Positions 2,222 to 22,555 of a stretch of 32,000 nt of DNA are shown one piece after another. The notes under the pieces are model-generated. The model saw only the letters and a list, made by a program, of their open reading frames with translations, had not been told where the DNA came from and searched no databases. How positions within the stretch are numbered: position 1 is the first letter of the stretch; each line of letters opens with the position of its first letter. A program made the position numbers and the translations under genes. Source of the DNA: Candidatus Tenderia sp. (GTDB taxonomy: Bacteria; Pseudomonadota; Gammaproteobacteria; Tenderiales; Tenderiaceae); contig JANOSY010000017.1 of the NCBI GenBank assembly GCA_031416075.1, positions 121,691-153,690 of the forward strand. The letters are read 5' to 3'.

Positions 2222-2553
2222 TGCCAAACCGCTATGTACCTGAGTCAGGCGATATTGTTTGGCTACAGTTCGACCCCCAGGCAGGTCATGAACAGGCGGG
2301 CCATCGACCGGCATTAGTGATCAGTCCCGCATCCTACAATGGCAAAACAGGTCTTATGGTCTGCTGCCCCATGACCAGCAAAATCAAAGGCTACCCATTC
2401 GAAGTTGTCATTGGTAAAGGTCGTGAAGGCGCGGCACTGGCCGACCAGATAAAAAGTCTGGATTGGCGGGCACGTAAAGCAACCCGCAAAGGTAAAGCCT
2501 CGGGATCTGAGCTACAGGAGGTTAAGGCCAAGATCGCAGCTCTATTGTTATAG
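2221..2553 (+). CDS. mazF: MazF/PemK-family mRNA interferase toxin
   Basis: RYVPESGDIVWLQFDPQAGHEQAGHRPALVISP...KGYPFEVVI...ALADQIKSLDWRARKA is near-collinear with E. coli MazF (RYVPDMGDLIWVDFDPTKGSEQAGHRPAVVLSP...KGYPFEVVL...ALADQVKSIAWRARGA). Confidence 0.9.
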   Translation: MPNRYVPESGDIVWLQFDPQAGHEQAGHRPALVISPASYNGKTGLMVCCPMTSKIKGYPFEVVIGKGREGAALADQIKSLDWRARKATRKGKASGSELQEVKAKIAALLL

Positions 2554-2790
2554 CAAGAGCTATTAGAATCTCTACATCATTTAAAAAGCATCCACTTACA
2601 TAAAAAATACCTGCTTGAAAAATTAGGGAATCGCTTAAAATGACACGCCAATATTAAAAATTTCCCCCTGTTGTCAGGCCAACAAAGTATATGTAGCCAT
2701 GCTTTTTTGTCATTCACAGGGGAACCGAGTATAAACTCTAAAGCAGGTAACATCCTAAACCGGGGTGTTTAAACATGTTATAAAACAATA

Positions 2791-3429
2791 ATGAGCCTAG
2801 ATCTAATCACAATAATTTTATCCCTGATTTCCCTCTACGTCTCAGTCAGAGTCGCTTGGGAAACAAGCTTCAGACCTGCAAAAATTGTAGCCGTCATGCC
2901 GCATTGCGTAATGTGGCAATTCTCATCATGGAAAGGAGACAGACCAACTGGTGATGTGATTAGCCGGCAAATGACGCCGTATCTTAGGATTAGAAATTTT
3001 GGTATAAAGCCTGTTGTTATAGAAGACCTCAGAATTAAATTCAAAACCCAAAATTCTGCTGTATTCGCTTATCCTGTTAACAAGGTAGCGGATGAAGTTA
3101 TAGAGGCACCAGGAAATAATAATCAGCAGCTTGGCTTGGGTCAAGGCGCTCCATTTTGCGGGATTTTCTTAGCCGCGAATCAAGAATGGAAAAATTCATA
3201 TGCATTTTCCATGAGCGTAAATGACTACGAAATACTAATCCAAGACGTAAATGTATATGTTGAAATTAGAACAGGAGGAAGCAATAAATGGAAAACAATA
3301 CACAAGGATATTTTTTCGTTCGGTAGCATGCCATATCATTTGCGCCCATTAAAAACTGATACTACCGCTACTGGATCTAGGAATAGCCATGTTTATTCTA
3401 AAAGATGGAATGATGCACATGGAAAATAA
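2791..3429 (+). CDS. Hypothetical membrane-anchored protein (one N-terminal TM helix, then a beta-rich ~185-aa domain)
   Basis: 212-aa ORF in the AT-rich island. The N-terminus LITIILSLISLYVSVRVAW is a single hydrophobic helix. I recognise no family motif. Confidence 0.55.
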   Translation: MSLDLITIILSLISLYVSVRVAWETSFRPAKIVAVMPHCVMWQFSSWKGDRPTGDVISRQMTPYLRIRNFGIKPVVIEDLRIKFKTQNSAVFAYPVNKVADEVIEAPGNNNQQLGLGQGAPFCGIFLAANQEWKNSYAFSMSVNDYEILIQDVNVYVEIRTGGSNKWKTIHKDIFSFGSMPYHLRPLKTDTTATGSRNSHVYSKRWNDAHGK

Positions 3430-3516
3430 GTTTTCTAACAACTCGTTTAAGTTATGCTCACGCTAATCACACGGCCACTTAACTCAAACGTTAGGCCAGC
3501 ACATTTTAAGAGCAGT

Positions 3517-3639
3517 ATGATGAATAAAACAATCTTAACCACGAGCATTCTGTTGTTATCCTTACTCTCAGGCCAGAGTAATGCAGATAATATTTCTAGA
3601 TATGCAATAGGTAGTACCGGCTATCTAATGAAGCAATAA
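3517..3639 (+). CDS. Small ORF that is essentially only a signal peptide (MMNKTILTTSILLLSLLSGQSNA/DN...). It may be a decayed 5' end of the downstream amidase gene.
   Basis: Internal ATG of ORF 3454..3639. It has a classic n-h-c signal peptide with an SNA-D cleavage site. It shares the reading frame of the amidase ORF (3703), separated from it by TAA 3637-3639 and TGA 3676-3678. Confidence 0.3.
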   Translation: MMNKTILTTSILLLSLLSGQSNADNISRYAIGSTGYLMKQ

Positions 3640-3702
3640 GCAATAGGGGACAGACCACTGTATTTTCCTAAATACTGATCCAACCAATCAAAAGGAAACA
3701 CC

Positions 3703-4302
3703 ATGATCGTAATTGACAAAGACGGAAAGGTCGTTGATAAAAAAATAAAATTAAAAATAGTTCCTGCGATTGAGAAAAATCCAATGGCAAAAGTCAGAGG
3801 AATAATAATACATCAAACAGGAGGGTCAACCGCCGAATCCGCATTCAACAGTTATAAAACGGGTAGCGCGGGTGCTCATTTCCTTATCGATAAAGATGGG
3901 GCAATTTATCAAACTGCTTCAGTTATAAAACAGACTTGGCATGTTGGTAAGTTAAGATCACGGTGCCTGGCAGAAATGACATGCACGGCAACAGAACTCA
4001 GTTTACTCAAAAAATTCGATCCTACTCGGACACATCGTAGAGAAACAGGAAAGAACGTTCCCGATCGATACCCTTCAAACCAAGATAGTATAGGCATCGA
4101 AATTGTAGGCCAGGCGTTACCTTTAACGGAACCCGATCCAGATAAAAGAAGTTATGAGGCACTAACCAAAGAACAGAGCGAACAGCTAAAGTGGCTTATT
4201 CAGGAGCTAAGGGCATCCCTTAAGGTACCTTTGACAGAAATTTTTCGGCATCCTACGGTCTCTTATAAGAACAAAACAGAGGCGGGGAATGCGTCATGGT
4301 GA
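3703..4302 (+). CDS. N-acetylmuramoyl-L-alanine amidase (Amidase_2 / PGRP / T7-lysozyme fold), no signal peptide
   Basis: Motifs IIIHQTGG, GAHFLIDKDGAIYQ, WHVG, SIGIEIVG and a C-terminal RHPTVSYKNKTE match the Amidase_2 pattern of zinc ligands and core strands. AAGGA RBS before the ATG. I see no hydrophobic leader. Confidence 0.75.
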   Translation: MIVIDKDGKVVDKKIKLKIVPAIEKNPMAKVRGIIIHQTGGSTAESAFNSYKTGSAGAHFLIDKDGAIYQTASVIKQTWHVGKLRSRCLAEMTCTATELSLLKKFDPTRTHRRETGKNVPDRYPSNQDSIGIEIVGQALPLTEPDPDKRSYEALTKEQSEQLKWLIQELRASLKVPLTEIFRHPTVSYKNKTEAGNASW

Positions 4303-4754
4303 AGCGATTACTTATTACTTCTGCTTTGATTCTATCTGGATGCTCATCAAGTGATCATGAAACAACAACCAAACAAAAATCGCCTGAAAATGTATTAAGC
4401 ATTGAGTCTATAAAAATAGAGCATAACGGTGACTTCTCAAACTACATTAGCTCTGATGAAACGTCTGAAATGTGCAAAGACTTTGTTTTAGATAAAGCAG
4501 ACGTATTAAATTTTTTTACAACGGCGCGCTCGGCAACTTCAAGAGAGTATGAACATGATCTGACGGCATCAAACTGCTTTGCCAGCGGAACTTTCATTTC
4601 CAACAGTGGTGTTAGTGGTGATTGGAAAATTGACCGTTCAAGAAGAGGGACACTTCATGTGCAGGACAAGGCACCTGAATATTATTATTGCAGTGAGTGC
4701 AAAAGCCAGCTGTTTTACGAAGCGTGTGACATAGATTGTGCTCACGGTGAGTAA
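4296..4754 (+). CDS. Cys-rich lipoprotein, translationally coupled to the amidase (candidate immunity or partner protein)
   Basis: Lipobox LILSG-C at residues 12-16 (MVKRLLITSALILSGCSS). Six further cysteines are concentrated at the C-terminus (YYCSECKSQLFYEACDIDCAHGE). Its ATG overlaps the amidase stop (ATGGTGA, 4296-4302). Confidence 0.7.
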   Translation: MVKRLLITSALILSGCSSSDHETTTKQKSPENVLSIESIKIEHNGDFSNYISSDETSEMCKDFVLDKADVLNFFTTARSATSREYEHDLTASNCFASGTFISNSGVSGDWKIDRSRRGTLHVQDKAPEYYYCSECKSQLFYEACDIDCAHGE

Positions 4755-4823
4755 TCAACAGGGCTACCATGTAAATCACAACCTCCCCAAACAAAGTAGA
4801 CCCAGCCGTATGTAGCCAAGTAA

Positions 4824-4952
4824 GGTGCATTCCATGCACCATCACCACAACCAGTGATTATGTGTTTCATGTTTGATACACAATCAAAAAAGTGCGCTGA
4901 CAAATTATCGGTGTCTAATGGGTAATTTAAAAAATGGTGCATGGAATGCACC
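4824..4952. repeat. Inverted pair of a 19-nt hairpin repeat (GGTGCATTCCATGCACCAT), REP/MITE-like
   Basis: 4824-4842 reads GGTGCATTCCATGCACCAT and 4934-4952 is its exact reverse complement. Each copy is itself a 7-bp stem with a 3-nt loop (GGTGCAT-TCC-ATGCACC). The flanks (gccaagtaa / ttagtaggc-type) extend the similarity imperfectly. Confidence 0.8.
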
Positions 4953-4991
4953 CTACTAAGCCGGATTCAACAAACACGCTGTCAGTCCCTC

Positions 4992-5729
4992 TTAACCGCC
5001 ATGGATGTAATGGATGGTTTTTAAGTTTAGCTTACCGCTAAATCCTCTTATTATCTCAAACCCCTTGTCACCAAAAAGGCGCGCTAGAAATGCGCGGTAC
5101 TTACACACTGGACGTTTGTTAACCTGACTTATGTAGGCGTCGACACTTTTTTCCATTGAGTCCCATCCCAAGACAGAAGCGGTGGCGTCAGTATTTTTTT
5201 TTACCCCACAAAAGTAAACGTCAAAAGATCTCCAATTAACCCAAAATTGATAATTCGAAAACCCCATCTCCAAATCAAGCTTTTTCTTAAAGTCACTTGG
5301 AAGTAAATTGTGATAATAGTTCCATCCCATTTCAACCGTTAGCGGGGAAGCTTGCGGGTCAGTCCTGGCGGTGCCGTGCTCTTTTCTTCCGTGAGTTGCG
5401 CAGGTCATTAGCACAAGCCCTCCGGGCTTACACACGCGAAGCATATTCTGAAAAGTCTCAACCCAGTGTGGGTTATGTTCCATAGCCTCACACGAAATGA
5501 CCTGATCGAAGTAATTATCGGGACCATCGTAATCTTGACCCTGGCAAACGATATCAACATTCTTACCTTCCGAAATATCAAGGCCCGTATAGTCGCAATT
5601 ACTAAAATAATCTTTGACGGAACCGTTAATATCCAAAGAGCCGATTTCTAAAACTTTGCTATTAGTAAAATATTGGTTCATTTCGGCAGAAATCAATTTT
5701 ACGAAATCACGCTGTGCAGGATGTGACAT
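4992..5729 (-). CDS. Class I SAM-dependent methyltransferase
   Basis: Motif I-like VLEIGSLDINGS, an acidic loop TGLDIS, a post-I/II region FDQVISCEAMEHN and KPGGLVLM are typical of Methyltransf_11/23-type enzymes. 245 aa, AT-rich. Confidence 0.7.
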   Translation of the reverse strand: MSHPAQRDFVKLISAEMNQYFTNSKVLEIGSLDINGSVKDYFSNCDYTGLDISEGKNVDIVCQGQDYDGPDNYFDQVISCEAMEHNPHWVETFQNMLRVCKPGGLVLMTCATHGRKEHGTARTDPQASPLTVEMGWNYYHNLLPSDFKKKLDLEMGFSNYQFWVNWRSFDVYFCGVKKNTDATASVLGWDSMEKSVDAYISQVNKRPVCKYRAFLARLFGDKGFEIIRGFSGKLNLKTIHYIHGG

Positions 5730-15452: not shown

Positions 15453-17155
<1,703 letters not shown>

Positions 17156-17156
<1 letters not shown>

Positions 17157-17617
17157 TGTTGCCGCTGATGTTACAGATCACAGAACGTTTAACCTCTGGC
17201 GAGCAGCATGACGACCGACTGATACTGCCGTTTGACCGACGCCAGAAGAGCCGCTTGCGGGTTACGCTGGAGTCTGGCACCGAGGCCGGGCTGTTCCTGG
17301 CGCGTGGCACCCTGTTACGCGGCGGTGACCGGTTGCGCGGCGACGACGGCCGCATCGTGCTGATCGTAGCCGCAGACGAACCTGTGATGCGTATCACTGC
17401 CACAACCACACACCAGCTGATGTGTGCTACCTACCACCTCGGCAATCGCCATGTCCCGCTCCAGATTGGCGAGGGGTGGCTGATACTCGAACAGGACCAC
17501 GTCCTGCAAGAGATGTTGTTAGGGCTAGGTGTGACGGTCACCTATCAAAACGCGCCTTTTGAACCCGAGGCAGGTGCCTATGGCGGCGGACATCGTCATC
17601 ATCAGGATGGCGATTAA
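17156..17617 (+). CDS. ureE: Urease accessory (nickel chaperone) protein UreE
   Basis: Its ATG overlaps the ureC stop (TGATG). UreE-like core (YHLGNRHVPLQI) and a His-rich tail (GGGHRHHQDGD). Confidence 0.85.
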
Positions 17618-17651
17618 AAATCCGCACCCAAAGCACCATGTGGAGCAGGTT

Positions 17652-17727
17652 TTTCGTGGCGAAATTGTCGAACCATAGACGGAGGACGATTAACGTCACC
17701 AGCCCTTCGACAGGCTCAGGGCGAGCG
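17652..17727. repeat. Hairpin repeat element A2 (same family as 8823-8913)
   Basis: TTCGTGGCGAAATTGTCGAACCATAGACGGAGGA...TTAACGTCACCAGCCCTTCGACAGGCTCAGGGCGA is collinear with A1. The right core is perfect at 17706-17718 and the left core is degenerate. Confidence 0.8.
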
Positions 17728-17729
17728 GA

Positions 17730-17942
17730 GGATTTATTCAGAGGTTCGTTAAAAATTATTTATGCGGCTGTCATCATGATCAAAGGACAGCTAAAGATCG
17801 AGCCGTGCGGTTGCCATCTTCATGATCAAGGAACGATTAAAAATCCAATCGTGCAGTGGCCATCGTTGTTATCAGGAGACGGACAAAAATCATCATCAAG
17901 AGAATGTTAAAAGCTGTCATTATCAGAAGGCACCCAATAATC
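17730..17942. repeat. Array of about six degenerate copies of a ~24-nt motif (approx. TCATGATCAAGGAACGATTAAAAAT)
   Basis: Copies at about 17737, 17774-17798, 17820-17844, 17865-17889, 17890-17912 and 17916-17941. The first two full copies share TCATGATCAA exactly. Spacing is irregular (20-46 nt). Confidence 0.55.
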
Positions 17943-17997
17943 CGTTCGTCCTGAGCCTGTCGAAGGATGAACGGATTAACTAAAAAGGATAAACAAA

Positions 17998-18363
17998 ATG
18001 TTTTGGGTCTACATTCTCCGCTGTGCCGACGGCAGCTATTACACAGGGCACACCGACAATCTTGAAAGACGAATGGGACAATACCTGGCCGGAGAGTGTG
18101 AGGGCTATGTCTCAACACGTCGTCCAGTGGAACTTGCCTGGTCGCAGGAGTGTGTCACCAGAGAAGAGGCCTTAACCGCTGAGATGCAGATCAAAGGATG
18201 GAGCCGTAAGAAAAAAGAGGCCATGATGCGCAGCGACTGGACGGAAGTTTCTCATTTAGCAAAAAGTAAATCGTCCATCCTTCGACAGGCTCAGGACGAA
18301 CGGCCTGCCTCACGTAGTGCTTTGGGTACGGATTTAACTCTGCTGCGGAGTAATAAAAGTTGA
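17998..18363 (+). CDS. Small GIY-YIG (URI-domain) nuclease family protein
   Basis: FWVYILRCADGSYYTGHTDNLERRMGQY (GIY ... YxG ... R) and a downstream REEALTAEMQIKGWSRKKK match the stand-alone GIY-YIG / UPF0213 pattern. AAGGA RBS. The C-terminal ~30 aa (SILRQAQDERP...) are a read-through of the right-hand repeats. Confidence 0.8.
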   Translation: MFWVYILRCADGSYYTGHTDNLERRMGQYLAGECEGYVSTRRPVELAWSQECVTREEALTAEMQIKGWSRKKKEAMMRSDWTEVSHLAKSKSSILRQAQDERPASRSALGTDLTLLRSNKS

Positions 18364-18430
18364 TTAGCCACTATTTTCATATTGCATCTCAATGCAGATG
18401 CCCTGCATCCACAATTACGGTCGCACCATC

Positions 18431-19132
18431 ATGATTGATTCACTCGCACTCGCCCGACTGTTACAACTGGCCAGCCCGATGTTGCCGGTGGGCGCCTACA
18501 GCTACTCCCAAGGTTTGGAGTGGGCCATTGAAGAGGGCACGGTGTACGACGCCGCCACTGCCGAGCAGTGGATCGGTGATGTGCTCGAATTTTCACTCGG
18601 CAGCTTTGAACTGCCGTTGCTGTGGCGCATGTGTCACGCCTGGCAGTTGCAGGATCAACAACAGATCAACCACTGGAACGATTTTTTCTGTGCCGGACGC
18701 GAGACCGCCGAGTCCCATGCCGAAACATTGCAGATGGGTTATTCACTGCGGCGGCTGCTCAATTCACTAGAGTCGTTGGAATCCATTGGTGAAGGGCAAA
18801 CATCACCACTGCAACAGCTGCAAGAGATCTCGCCAATCAGCTTCCCCACCGCCTACGCCTGCGCCGTGGCCAGTTGGAAAATCCCGATTGACGCAGCGCT
18901 GCAAGCCTACGCCTGGTCGTGGCTCGAAAATCAGATCAGCGCCGCTATAAAAACTATTCCGCTGGGGCAAACCGATGGTCAGCGCACCCTATTTGCATTG
19001 GCAGGACGCCTGCCGCAATTGATAACACACGCCTGCATACTTGAAGACGATGAGATCAGCAACTTCGCTCCCGGCCTCACCTTTGCCGGATGCCGCCACG
19101 AGACTCAATACAGCCGTCTATTTAGATCATAG
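18431..19132 (+). CDS. ureF: Urease accessory protein UreF
   Basis: LARLLQLASPMLPVGAYSYSQGLEWAIE is the characteristic UreF N-terminus. ATG 18431 is preferred over 18392. Confidence 0.88.
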   Translation: MIDSLALARLLQLASPMLPVGAYSYSQGLEWAIEEGTVYDAATAEQWIGDVLEFSLGSFELPLLWRMCHAWQLQDQQQINHWNDFFCAGRETAESHAETLQMGYSLRRLLNSLESLESIGEGQTSPLQQLQEISPISFPTAYACAVASWKIPIDAALQAYAWSWLENQISAAIKTIPLGQTDGQRTLFALAGRLPQLITHACILEDDEISNFAPGLTFAGCRHETQYSRLFRS

Positions 19133-19985: not shown

Positions 19986-20432
19986 TCACTCCCCAATTTC
20001 TGGTTCAACAAGTTTTGCGAGTGCGGCAAGCGACTCCTGCCAACCGAGGTAACACATCTCGACGGGGATGACGTCAGGGATGCCCGCCTGCACCACATTC
20101 AACTCAGTGCCACAGGAGACCTGTTTCAAAGAGACCGTCACCTCTATCACGCTAGGAAGATTTGGGTCCTCGAATTTATCTGTATAGCGAATCAATTCGT
20201 TTGGCACCAGCTCCAAGTATTCACCGCCGAAGGAGTGGCTCTTTTGGGTAGTGAAGTTTGTAAACGACATCCTGAATGACCCGCCAACCTTGGCATCCAT
20301 ATGATGCACGGTGCAGGTAAAACCGTTTGGAGGAATCCACTTGGCCATGGCATCGGCATTGAGGAATGCACGATAAACCCGCTCCGGCGGTGAACGCAAA
20401 ACACGATGCAGACGAACAGTGTTGGTGGCCAT
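19986..20432 (-). CDS. SRPBCC / AHSA1 (Aha1-like) domain protein
   Basis: From the internal ATG (MATNTVRLHRVLRSPPERVYRAFLNADAMAKWIPPNGF...GGSFRMSF...GGEYLELVPNELIRYT), typical of the Activator-of-Hsp90-ATPase-homolog / SRPBCC family. GGAGAG RBS upstream of 20432. Confidence 0.7.
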   Translation of the reverse strand: MATNTVRLHRVLRSPPERVYRAFLNADAMAKWIPPNGFTCTVHHMDAKVGGSFRMSFTNFTTQKSHSFGGEYLELVPNELIRYTDKFEDPNLPSVIEVTVSLKQVSCGTELNVVQAGIPDVIPVEMCYLGWQESLAALAKLVEPEIGE

Positions 20433-20581
20433 GATTTTTCTCTCCTTTTGTTGTTGGGTTTCAGAATCTGTTTCGACACAGGACTTAAAGATATTACCTT
20501 GCACCTTTAAGCGCCAGAAGTTCACGACAACTGCCTATCCTGTACAGCATGAATGGTTAACATTCGGATCATAATCGTTTG

Positions 20582-21271
20582 TTAAATATGGCACTCATTG
20601 CTCAATAGCGACCTTATATCAACCGCATATTTCTGATAAGAATTCCAACCAAGTATCGAACAAATATTTGACGAATATGAAGTAATAGACTCTCTTTCAA
20701 GATCAAACGCAGGATCATTAAAATCTCCATAGTCATGATTGGTTGCCAGCGCTTTAAATATATTACGACTTATAATTCTCAGGCCACTTTTATCATCGAA
20801 GTGGTTATACTGGTTGCGCCCTGCATAAATAACGAGGCCTAAAGGCACACCCCTAACAACCCTGCCAAATGCAAATTTTTTTATTATATTTATTGCATTG
20901 GATTTACTTTTTTCACCATTACAACCATGGCACAGATATAATAAGAAATCGTCGAACTTGCTGTTAATGGCATGCAGTTCAATTCCTTTAAACGCTATTT
21001 GTAAAATCGAACCTGAAATAACATGCATCGAAAACAAGCTGGCTTGATACTCTTCTCTCGCATACTTGGCGACCTCGAATTCTTGCCGCACTTCTGGCCT
21101 TGACCTCCACTCCTCATATTTTTTTTCAAATTCTCCTTCCTTGCCGTTATGGCGAAACACCGCTACAGGAGGAATGCTCATTCCGATTAAGCCCCTGTAA
21201 TAATCAATAGACTCAAACATGCTTTTTACTGCATGCTCAGTTTGATCTATGTATTGTTCTGAGCTGATCAT
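20582..21271 (-). CDS. Hypothetical alpha-helical protein with an RNxxxH (HEPN-like) motif; candidate RNase toxin or abortive-infection effector
   Basis: 229 aa, AT-rich. VIYAGRNQYNHFDD contains R-N-x-x-x-H, the Rx4-6H signature of HEPN RNases (Abi_2, DUF86, Csm6 and Cas13 share RNxxxH). I recognise no other family motif. Confidence 0.4.
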   Translation of the reverse strand: MISSEQYIDQTEHAVKSMFESIDYYRGLIGMSIPPVAVFRHNGKEGEFEKKYEEWRSRPEVRQEFEVAKYAREEYQASLFSMHVISGSILQIAFKGIELHAINSKFDDFLLYLCHGCNGEKSKSNAINIIKKFAFGRVVRGVPLGLVIYAGRNQYNHFDDKSGLRIISRNIFKALATNHDYGDFNDPAFDLERESITSYSSNICSILGWNSYQKYAVDIRSLLSNECHI

Positions 21272-21314
21272 TTCAATTTTCTCTTAACAGATAATCGCCT
21301 CAAAAGCGGGGCAA

Positions 21315-21566
21315 TCAAACATCCCACTTTTTTAGGTGGCAATCTGGAATATATACTCGGCTCTCGCATGAATGACAAAAAAAACTTAGCCGCGCATAAA
21401 ACACCGACACATCAACGGGGCATGTATTTAATTCTGGTGTTTTTGTCTGGTCTCTTACTTCAATGTCGCCGAATCGTGAAACACCAACAATCCAAAACCT
21501 TCCTTTCTCAACCTTGATCACACTGCTCACCGCAGAAATCGCCACTTCACCCACAACAGTGCTCAT
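21315..21566 (-). CDS. Small hypothetical protein (83 aa) with a Cys/His cluster, translationally coupled to amgK
   Basis: Its ATG overlaps the amgK stop (ATGA at 21563-21566). C-terminal CPVD...CHSC...CH may bind zinc. 43 nt upstream of the 229-aa gene. Confidence 0.45.
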   Translation of the reverse strand: MSTVVGEVAISAVSSVIKVEKGRFWIVGVSRFGDIEVRDQTKTPELNTCPVDVSVFYARLSFFCHSCESRVYIPDCHLKKWDV

Positions 21567-22555
21567 CTAACCTGTCGTGTCATCACCCGCTCCTCCAACA
21601 ATCGCCGCAGCGGCTGCAACTCCGGCACCCGCTGCACCACTTCCAACACATATTCCATGATGCGTGGAATATCTTGCAGATAGCCGGGTTTGCCGTCGCG
21701 GATGTTGAGGCGGGCGAAGATGCCGAGCACTTTGAGGTGGCGTTGCACGCCCATCAGATCAAACCATTGCAGCAGCTGTTGCTGGCTTTCGCCTGCGTTG
21801 ACGCCTGCGGTCATTGCTTGTTGGCGATACTGCGCGACCCATGCCTCTACACGTTGACGTGGCCAGGCGATGTAACAATCTTTGAGTAGTGAGACGAGGT
21901 CATAACTGACCGGGCCGATCACGGCGTCCTGAAAGTCGAGCACGCCGGGGTTGTGTTGGGTGGTGAGCATGAGGTTGCGTGAGTGGTAGTCGCGATGGAC
22001 CCAGACGTAGGGTTGTTGCAGTGACTGTTGCGTCAACCACTCCAGCACTTCATCCAGCGCGTGCTGTTGTTCTGCGGTCAATCTGATTTGCAGATGTTTT
22101 TCCAGGAACCACTCCTGGAACAGCGCCATCTCGCGCATCAATAAAGCATGGTCGTAACGTGGCAGCGCTGCGTCGGTGAGTTTGCCGTTGGCCTGTAGCT
22201 GTACCAGGGCGGTGATTGCGTCGCCGTAGAGTTGATCTGCACTCTGCTCATTCAGGGCGGGTAGGTATTGCTGATGGCCCAGATCACTCAGCAGCAAAAA
22301 TCCTTGCGTCAGATCCTGCTCCAGCACTACCGGCACGTTGAGGCCATAATCCGCCATGGCCGCTGAGATCTTGATGAAGGGGCCGCAATCCTCTTTCTCT
22401 GGCGGCGCATCCATGACGATGTGGCTCGTGCCCGGCAGCGTTATCCGGAAGTAGCGCCGGAAACTGGCGTCGCTGGAGGCGGGGGCGATCTGGGCACCAC
22501 TGATACCGAGTGTCTGCTCTACCCAAACGGTTAACTGTTCCAATCTTCTGTCCAT
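21563..22555 (-). CDS. amgK: Aminoglycoside-phosphotransferase-fold kinase, probably anomeric MurNAc/GlcNAc kinase AmgK
   Basis: APH/choline-kinase motifs (FRRYFRI, VWVHRDYHSRNLML, VLDFQDAVIGPVSYDL). It is divergent from lptD, which is where amgK-murU sits in Pseudomonas. Confidence 0.7.
   Translation of the reverse strand: MDRRLEQLTVWVEQTLGISGAQIAPASSDASFRRYFRITLPGTSHIVMDAPPEKEDCGPFIKISAAMADYGLNVPVVLEQDLTQGFLLLSDLGHQQYLPALNEQSADQLYGDAITALVQLQANGKLTDAALPRYDHALLMREMALFQEWFLEKHLQIRLTAEQQHALDEVLEWLTQQSLQQPYVWVHRDYHSRNLMLTTQHNPGVLDFQDAVIGPVSYDLVSLLKDCYIAWPRQRVEAWVAQYRQQAMTAGVNAGESQQQLLQWFDLMGVQRHLKVLGIFARLNIRDGKPGYLQDIPRIMEYVLEVVQRVPELQPLRRLLEERVMTRQVR

Follow-up and report, generated by a model that had tools for sequence, protein, structure and literature searches.

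Genes and base composition downstream of amgK

Within a 32,000-nucleotide (nt) stretch of a Candidatus Tenderia sp. contig (JANOSY010000017.1, positions 121,691 to 153,690; hereafter the window, whose own numbering is used throughout), an AT-rich segment of foreign composition lies directly downstream of an amgK-like gene and carries the gene for a 229-amino-acid (aa) protein of an unnamed family. The amgK-like gene (21563–22555, minus strand) encodes a 330-aa anomeric kinase of N-acetylmuramic acid (MurNAc) and N-acetylglucosamine, which matched Pfam APH (3.8e-37) and, over residues 3–322, the NCBIfam AmgK model NF045759 (1.9e-92, short of the equivalog cut-off), and it is divergent from lptD-surA-pdxA-rsmA. 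Direct reading of the sequence shows that its stop codon overlaps, as ATGA (21563–21566, minus strand), the start of an 83-aa open reading frame (ORF), orf83 (21315–21566, minus strand). A 43-nt gap (21272–21314) separates orf83 from the 229-aa ORF (20582–21271, minus strand), which is co-oriented with amgK, is preceded by a candidate Shine-Dalgarno sequence (AAGAG, 9–13 nt upstream of the ATG) and alone among the ORFs of the insert has good support as a gene. Beyond the insert lie an AHSA1/SRPBCC-family gene (19986–20525, minus strand; Pfam AHSA1 1.6e-31), which probably begins in fact at the ATG near 20435, and, on the opposite strand, ureG, ureF and ureE. The ORFs, the ATGA, the 43-nt gap, the contrast in base composition and the AGRNQYNHFD string listed in the preliminary description of this locus were all verified.

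The guanine-plus-cytosine (GC) content of the 229-aa gene (0.383) and of orf83 (0.437) contrasts with that of amgK (0.572), lptD (0.555) and ureG (0.557), which agrees with the earlier remark that the segment looks foreign; the AHSA1/SRPBCC gene is native-like (0.52). A 40-nt GC profile placed the AT-rich segment at about 20400–21510 (~1.1 kb, no strand assigned, bounds approximate), with GC values of ~0.33–0.45. On the amgK side, values of at least 0.55 drop to ~0.45 or less near 21500–21520, a compositional break that falls ~50–60 nt into orf83, and on the other side the GC content recovers below ~20400. The segment is presumed to have been acquired horizontally. No convincing direct or inverted repeats that would define the ends of the insert were detected in its flanks, and the segment itself yielded neither a tRNA gene nor an Rfam match.

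To place this arrangement in context, the locus was compared with 80 metagenomic loci carrying amgK relatives (51–60% identity), 65 of which had sufficient downstream DNA. At least 38 of these 65 relatives have murU directly after amgK, encoding a ~220-aa MurU protein with the N-terminus MKAMILAAGRGERMRPLTD. A signature regular expression found no murU in the whole 32-kb window, and tblastn with 38 real MurU sequences found no remnant of one; the six-frame translation of the window did not match a MurU hidden Markov model, and its DNA did not match an nhmmer model of the amgK-murU junction. These results substantiate the earlier statement that the segment stands in the murU position: the foreign AT-rich segment occupies the murU slot, and murU has been replaced. 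Some other amgK relatives hold different genes in this slot, for example a 140-aa protein in three loci (L051, L055 and L057).

The ATGA between amgK and orf83 has the same geometry as the amgK-murU junction of the relatives, because 30 of the 38 murU-bearing relatives share a 4-nt start/stop overlap, and it may have been inherited from the ancestral junction; the base kept beyond the obligatory TGA is one A only. This correspondence takes away the significance that had been attached to the translational coupling of a foreign-looking gene to a cell-wall recycling kinase. The locus is a cautionary case, in that an ATG-over-stop coupling to a foreign-looking ORF may be mere inheritance from a displaced gene, and it shows that the murU half of the conserved amgK-murU pair can give way to a small foreign cassette. 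With AmgK left without an adjacent partner, MurNAc salvage could be affected unless murU is located elsewhere in the genome. MurNAc salvage in pseudomonads bears on fosfomycin tolerance, which could be affected as well.

The 229-aa protein family and its genomic settings

A word-indexed search recovered ~90 relatives of the 229-aa protein (E-values to 1e-94), all annotated as hypothetical and none with a Pfam domain, and an exhaustive search of 1.84 billion representatives yielded 261 clusters (50% identity) at E ≤ 1e-3. Because of these ~90 close and 261 cluster-level homologs, sequence comparison marks the ORF as certainly a real gene. A profile search that used the family alignment A3 as a bridge returned family members only, again none with a Pfam domain, and the 229-aa protein itself had no match in Pfam, NCBIfam, PADLOC or PHROGs. 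The family is unnamed, with no detectable relative in Pfam, PADLOC or PDB. Forty genome loci are distributed over Gamma-, Beta- and 'Delta'-proteobacteria, Cyanobacteria, Bacteroidota, Nitrospirota, Chloroflexota, Verrucomicrobiota and Campylobacterota, and the family also occurs in Desulfobacterota; the overall range exceeds eight phyla, and this patchy spread is typical of horizontally mobile genes. A 212-aa ORF in another AT-rich island of the window (2791–3429), considered as a possible paralog, was found to be unrelated to the family.

Conservation, computed over 216 full-length members, is complete at G87, G136, G145, R152 and H157 (100%), reaches 99% at W209 and 95% at N153 and Q154, and extends to L90-Q91-x-A93, R137, P143 and D186-P-A-F-D-L. 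R152 and H157 are invariant in the alignments A1 and A3 also, and the Tenderia gene is intact and encodes every invariant residue. The AGRNQYNHFD string corresponds to residues 150–159, and the codons of R152-N153-Q154-Y155-N156-H157 (20801–20818, minus strand) encode, judging from conservation and placement in the model, a candidate catalytic Rx4H motif. The RNxxxH motif pointed out earlier is thus no chance match. The AlphaFold2 (AF2) model obtained with the family alignment (predicted local distance difference test, pLDDT, 93.2; predicted template modelling score, pTM, 0.87) is all-alpha, with ten helices and a small beta-hairpin. Residues 113–125 (20896–20934) read LCHGCNGEKSKSN; this stretch, part of a variable region between conserved helices, holds a Cys/His-containing insertion of ~5 residues that relatives do not have.

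Examination of the family loci revealed mobile and defence-type contexts, as would be expected of the defence gene proposed in the preliminary description. Tn7-like elements with TnsA, TnsB, TniB and TniQ carry the closest relatives (65% identity) as cargo, in locus L042 (1–11031) and in Alteromonas sp. A081 (L001). One copy lies directly after atpC, and a copy in Alishewanella follows groEL and stands beside IS66 and another transposase. Islands recur: one contains a TIR protein, antitoxins and YhcG, an integrase island contains NERD, SNase and YhcG, and a small island in locus L047 holds an HNH protein along with the family member P0017. In L131/L132 (5312–10194), a three-gene insert comprising a DUF2971 protein, the family gene and a 254-aa unknown splits a GMC-oxidoreductase gene. 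On three plasmids the family gene is accompanied by C5-methyltransferases, a BrnA antitoxin, GIY-YIG and a recombinase, and the pooled neighbours include Lamassu LmuB (two loci), type I restriction–modification (R-M), SoFic, Mrr, ABC-3C MC3, two integrases and a resolvase.

Several of these loci display further particulars. The Tn7-like loci contain a string of co-oriented genes for unknown proteins of 109, 159, 328, 225, 64 and 631 aa, the last with a Y4bO_3rd domain, and this string may be an uncharacterised multi-gene cargo system. The split GMC-oxidoreductase gene of L131/L132 consists of a 70-aa fragment and a 534-aa remainder, the picture of a clean mini-island arrival. Two genes upstream of P0017 in L047 (6787–7362) is encoded a 191-aa protein with weak matches to DUF4145 and HEPN_RiboL-PSP (E 0.07).

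When the genes within three positions on either side were clustered over 35 loci, the family gene alone linked the loci. Recurrent upstream genes for proteins of ~270–350 aa, considered as a partner that BLAST might have missed, proved heterogeneous and comprised an Mrr nuclease, DUF4238, CoiA_N, TPR, a dehydrogenase and unknowns. The 351 small flanking ORFs from 57 loci clustered only where one element had been sampled more than once, and neither amgK, orf83 nor an AHSA1 gene was near the family gene in any of the other 56 loci. Judged from its neighbourhoods, the family gene acts solo, with no conserved partner, and the architecture of a small partner followed by a HEPN toxin, invoked in the preliminary description, found no counterpart in the 57 loci. 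A TPR-repeat protein is encoded upstream in each of three loci, L049, L011 (a Cyanobacteriota metagenome-assembled genome) and L015 (Pseudanabaena), a hint that these form a subgroup with a neighbourhood of their own.

orf83 had no homolog among 5.8 billion clustered proteins, its self-match aside. No orf83-like ORF stands beside any of the other family members (0/56 loci, including relatives 57–68% identical to the 229-aa protein), and orf83 showed no similarity to the genes that flank the closest relatives. NCBIfam and PADLOC returned no match for it, and two sub-threshold matches were obtained, to Zn_ribbon_19 (Pfam, E 0.45) and phrog_13571 (PHROGs, E 0.032). The possibility that it is a remnant of murU, or of the genes flanking close homologs, was discarded after negative tblastn, hmmsearch and nhmmer results. 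Its AF2 model is unfolded (pLDDT 37), an outcome that is expected from single-sequence input and uninformative. Dinucleotide shuffling of the 295-nt spacer produced an ORF of 83 codons or more in 3% of cases (0.7% for the same strand), and the GC content decreases from the first to the third codon position (GC1>GC2>GC3), a weakly coding-like pattern.

The 3′ part of orf83 also contains a promoter-like element, read in the sequence as TTGTCA-N17-TATATA or N19-TATATT (21348–21378, minus strand). The N17 form, at 21378–21350, lies ~80 nt upstream of the ATG of the 229-aa gene; its resemblance is to the consensus only, and it just missed the rule set of the consensus scan. On these comparative grounds, orf83 is best described as an orphan frame that spans the junction and a promoter or leader region, not as the partner of the 229-aa protein. 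It could have arisen by chance at the junction or be an orphan specific to this lineage, and it may or may not be translated; a conserved partner it probably is not. The two-gene module proposed in the preliminary description does not, then, recur as a pair in other genomes.

Possible relationship to HEPN ribonucleases and competing explanations

Proteins of the HEPN superfamily share an Rx4-6H motif with a polar residue, mostly N, D or H, right after the arginine, and the motif lies where a helix ends and the next loop begins; a long insert before the motif helix is frequent, and an acidic helix-2 residue (Ex3[KR]) is present in many, not all, families (PMC3710099). The 229-aa family conforms to the motif, with R152-x4-H157 invariant and N153 as the polar residue. 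In the AF2 model, R152 ends the helix 144–152, residues 153–165 form a loop and the next helix spans 166–177, which reproduces the HEPN placement. The order of elements, a helical hairpin (47–73/75–100), an insert (101–143), the motif helix and the helix 166–177, is compatible with HEPN, and the 43 residues between the conserved helix 75–100 and the motif helix support the same layout. One metagenomic family member, P0117 (L049, 1792–2727), carries an in-frame C-terminal fusion to a minimal nucleotidyltransferase (MNT; NTP_transf_2, 3e-10). MNT is a classic HEPN companion, and the fusion would count for a HEPN relationship.

A number of results weigh against that relationship. None of the 38 aligned members matched the Pfam HEPN clan at E ≤ 1, scattered noise aside, and PADLOC, NCBIfam and PHROGs gave no HEPN link for the 229-aa protein. 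A PDB profile search with the full domain returned eIF2alpha (E 0.73, not meaningful), and one with the motif region returned only a spurious leucine-rich-repeat match. Foldseek reached E 0.8 at best against PDB (TM ~0.3) and E 0.5 against BFVD, without a HEPN protein in the top 50, and its matches were generic long helical bundles (PA26, STAT3 and 14-3-3; E ≥ 0.5). Alignment with hhalign to a genuine DUF86/HepT profile, the sole HEPN family tested profile-to-profile, gave a probability of 0.2%; this profile was built from annotated genes of plasmids and viral contigs, found with a DUF86-like consensus that served as bait only. No conserved acidic residue (Ex3[KR]) precedes the motif in the 216 members, the sole conserved polar residue of helix 75–100 being Q91 (87%), and the family is acidic, with a median isoelectric point (pI) of 5.75. 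The MNT fusion was seen once, in metagenomic DNA, and the MNT of P0117 might come from an adjacent MNT-HepT pair; of 49 loci, 2 showed an MNT signature close to the family gene, namely the L049 fusion and a degraded ORF in L010, and none was found in the 32-kb window. Regarding a defence role, none of 50,697 phage genomes contains the family, and in several cases the gene simply comes after a housekeeping gene (atpC, groEL); the habitat is that of defence and conflict genes, as a qualitative association. Of the refutation set out in the preliminary description, a lack of any HEPN-like core in structure or profile searches, half has come about: no search recovered a HEPN protein, although the order of the secondary-structure elements is compatible with one.

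Comparison with named systems revealed both likenesses and differences. With the HEPN superfamily as a whole, the 229-aa family has in common the all-alpha fold, the strict Rx4H spacing, the polar N after R, the motif at the helix end and loop, the long insert before the motif helix, the mobile, defence or R-M habitat and, in one member, the MNT fusion. It differs in the lack of a profile or fold link and of Ex3[KR], in its larger size (~215 aa), and in its GS-LQ-A helix, DPAFDL element, W209 and extra N- and C-terminal helices. HepS ('HEPN Solo') is a prophage abortive-infection anticodon nuclease that has no antitoxin partner and whose active sites stay buried in a tetramer until this is opened by a phage tail-tip protein (PMC13043305). 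Like the 229-aa protein, it is standalone, shorter than 250 aa and endowed with RNxxxH, without an antitoxin partner (PMC13043305), but no homology between the two was detected; unlike prophage-encoded HepS, the 229-aa family resides on transposons, plasmids and small islands. The LT2 Gifsy-1 record (NC_010392), in which HepS was sought, contained no ORF with RNxxxH at residues 100–105.

In the toxin–antitoxin (TA) system HepT/MntA, a DUF86 HEPN protein is paired with an MNT protein, and MntA AMPylates the tyrosine of the RX4HXY motif (PMC7641770, PMC4621449). The RNxxxH motif and the single fusion to an MNT-type nucleotidyltransferase are shared with this system. In the 229-aa family, however, the tyrosine is replaced by Asp/Glu (H157-x-D159; HFDD, HMDE, HFED), MNT is rarely nearby, the DUF86 alignment is negative, and the protein is ~2 times the size of HepT. 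Abi_2 proteins (AbiD/AbiF) are likewise single-gene, all-alpha, of RNxxxH type and located on mobile DNA (Table 1 of PMC3710099), but the Abi_2 and AbiD models of Pfam and PADLOC missed all 38 members at E ≤ 1; the 229-aa protein is shorter, and its family ranges mainly over Gram-negative and environmental bacteria. What links the family to solo HEPN defence proteins of the HepS and Abi_2 kind is a single gene without a conserved partner in mobile or defence-type regions.

The alternatives differ in what they make of the insert and of its position. According to the model of the preliminary description, orf83 is a Cys/His antitoxin that neutralises a HEPN toxin, the two forming a TA or abortive-infection module coupled to amgK. 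orf83 does fill the spacer, from its ATG over the amgK stop to its end 43 nt before the 229-aa gene, and its length is mildly unexpected among the shuffles and its codon composition weakly coding-like. Orphan antitoxins can also evolve fast. An antitoxin without a single homolog in 5.8 billion proteins, without a counterpart beside even the closest relatives and without a confident fold is nevertheless difficult to reconcile with a family in which no alternative partner is conserved either and which evidently works without one; moreover, the ATGA overlap reproduces the ancestral amgK-murU geometry, and the promoter-like element for the 229-aa gene sits inside orf83. The two-gene TA model is largely refuted by the comparative data, and we regard it as very improbable. 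A second proposal ties the insert to peptidoglycan recycling, with the 229-aa protein replacing or modulating MurU or AmgK, or sensing muropeptides, and draws on the location of the gene in the murU slot, co-oriented and probably co-transcribed with amgK. None of the 56 other loci adjoins amgK or murU, their neighbours are unrelated to each other, other copies follow atpC or groEL or lie within transposons, and the protein is all-alpha without a nucleotidyltransferase signature. The recycling link raised in the preliminary description loses its basis with no other family member adjoining amgK, and it appears scarcely credible.

The more serious competitor leaves the gene a solo mobile accessory gene and disputes the chemistry. 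The family would not be HEPN but a new all-alpha fold in which R-N-Q-x-x-H is convergent, serving another chemistry or ligand, for instance nucleotide or second-messenger binding, a different hydrolytic reaction, or a part in regulation or immunity. A high-confidence model without a structural neighbour in PDB or BFVD, uniformly negative profile tests against known HEPN families, the missing acidic residue, the acidic pI, and conserved elements outside any HEPN description (G87-x2-L90-Q91-x-A93, G136-R137, D186-P-A-F-D-L and W209) all favour it. The structural silence is tempered by the weakness of Foldseek on helical bundles. Against convergence, the exact Rx4H spacing, the polar N, the all-alpha fold and the site at the helix end and loop follow the HEPN definition point by point, one member is fused to MNT, the genomic habitat is typical of HEPN conflict genes, and sequence comparison notoriously fails to connect one HEPN family with another (PMC3710099). 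We consider a non-HEPN family plausible, with a chance of roughly one in three. A structurally unprecedented all-alpha enzyme family, spread as the one-gene cargo of Tn7-like transposons, plasmids and mini-islands and acting as a new class of partner-less, self-contained sensor-effector in phage or mobile-element conflict, with RNQxxH either independent of HEPN or marking an extreme and hitherto unrecognised branch of it, seems to us rather unlikely. That the family works like a HEPN ribonuclease (RNase) is the best hypothesis offered by the sequences and the model; we rate it as about evenly balanced and refrain from counting the family among the established HEPN families.

Proposed mode of action and other features of the window

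The reading that we tentatively prefer for the locus as a whole, at somewhat less than an even chance, is that of a divergent, HEPN-like RNase that acts solo and was acquired horizontally, with a probable role in defence or conflict and no link to peptidoglycan recycling. A foreign piece of ~1.1 kb and ~40% GC has replaced murU right downstream of amgK and brought a single functional cargo gene, whose 229-aa product acts alone. This product may be a very divergent, metal-independent HEPN-like RNase. Its putative active site would consist of R152 and H157, aided by N153 and Q154, at the end of a core helix and in an exposed loop, and would probably be completed across a homodimer. By analogy with HepS and with Abi_2 of the AbiD/AbiF type, the protein could be kept inactive until a trigger, such as a phage protein, appears; once activated, it might cleave tRNA or mRNA and so arrest the cell or abort the infection. 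Its expression could come from read-through of amgK transcription or from the promoter-like element inside orf83.

Should the protein prove to be a solo HEPN-like RNase, the catalogue of single-gene defence or conflict effectors would gain a widely scattered family that has no name yet. Current defence-finding resources (PADLOC, Pfam and NCBIfam) miss this family. A compact protein of ~215 aa with a confident yet unmatched predicted fold is also well suited to structural and mechanistic work.

Elsewhere in the window, a second and larger AT-rich island (~2400–5600, GC 0.36–0.44) contains the 212-aa ORF mentioned above, which has no Pfam match, an Amidase_2 N-acetylmuramoyl-L-alanine amidase gene (3703–4302), a 152-aa ORF and, on the minus strand, a methyltransferase gene (4992–5729). 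A 121-aa GIY-YIG nuclease-domain protein (17998–18363, plus strand; Pfam 3.4e-19) is encoded between ureE (17153–17617) and ureF (18392–19132); it is preceded by a stretch of GC 0.45 (17601–18000) and looks like a small selfish insertion in the urease accessory operon. On the minus strand, positions 15606–15891 match the Rfam small RNA (sRNA) family 5_ureB_sRNA (120 bits, E 2e-31), antisense to the 5′ part of the gene for the large urease subunit (15453–17156); this match may reflect a true antisense sRNA or mere conservation of the coding sequence.

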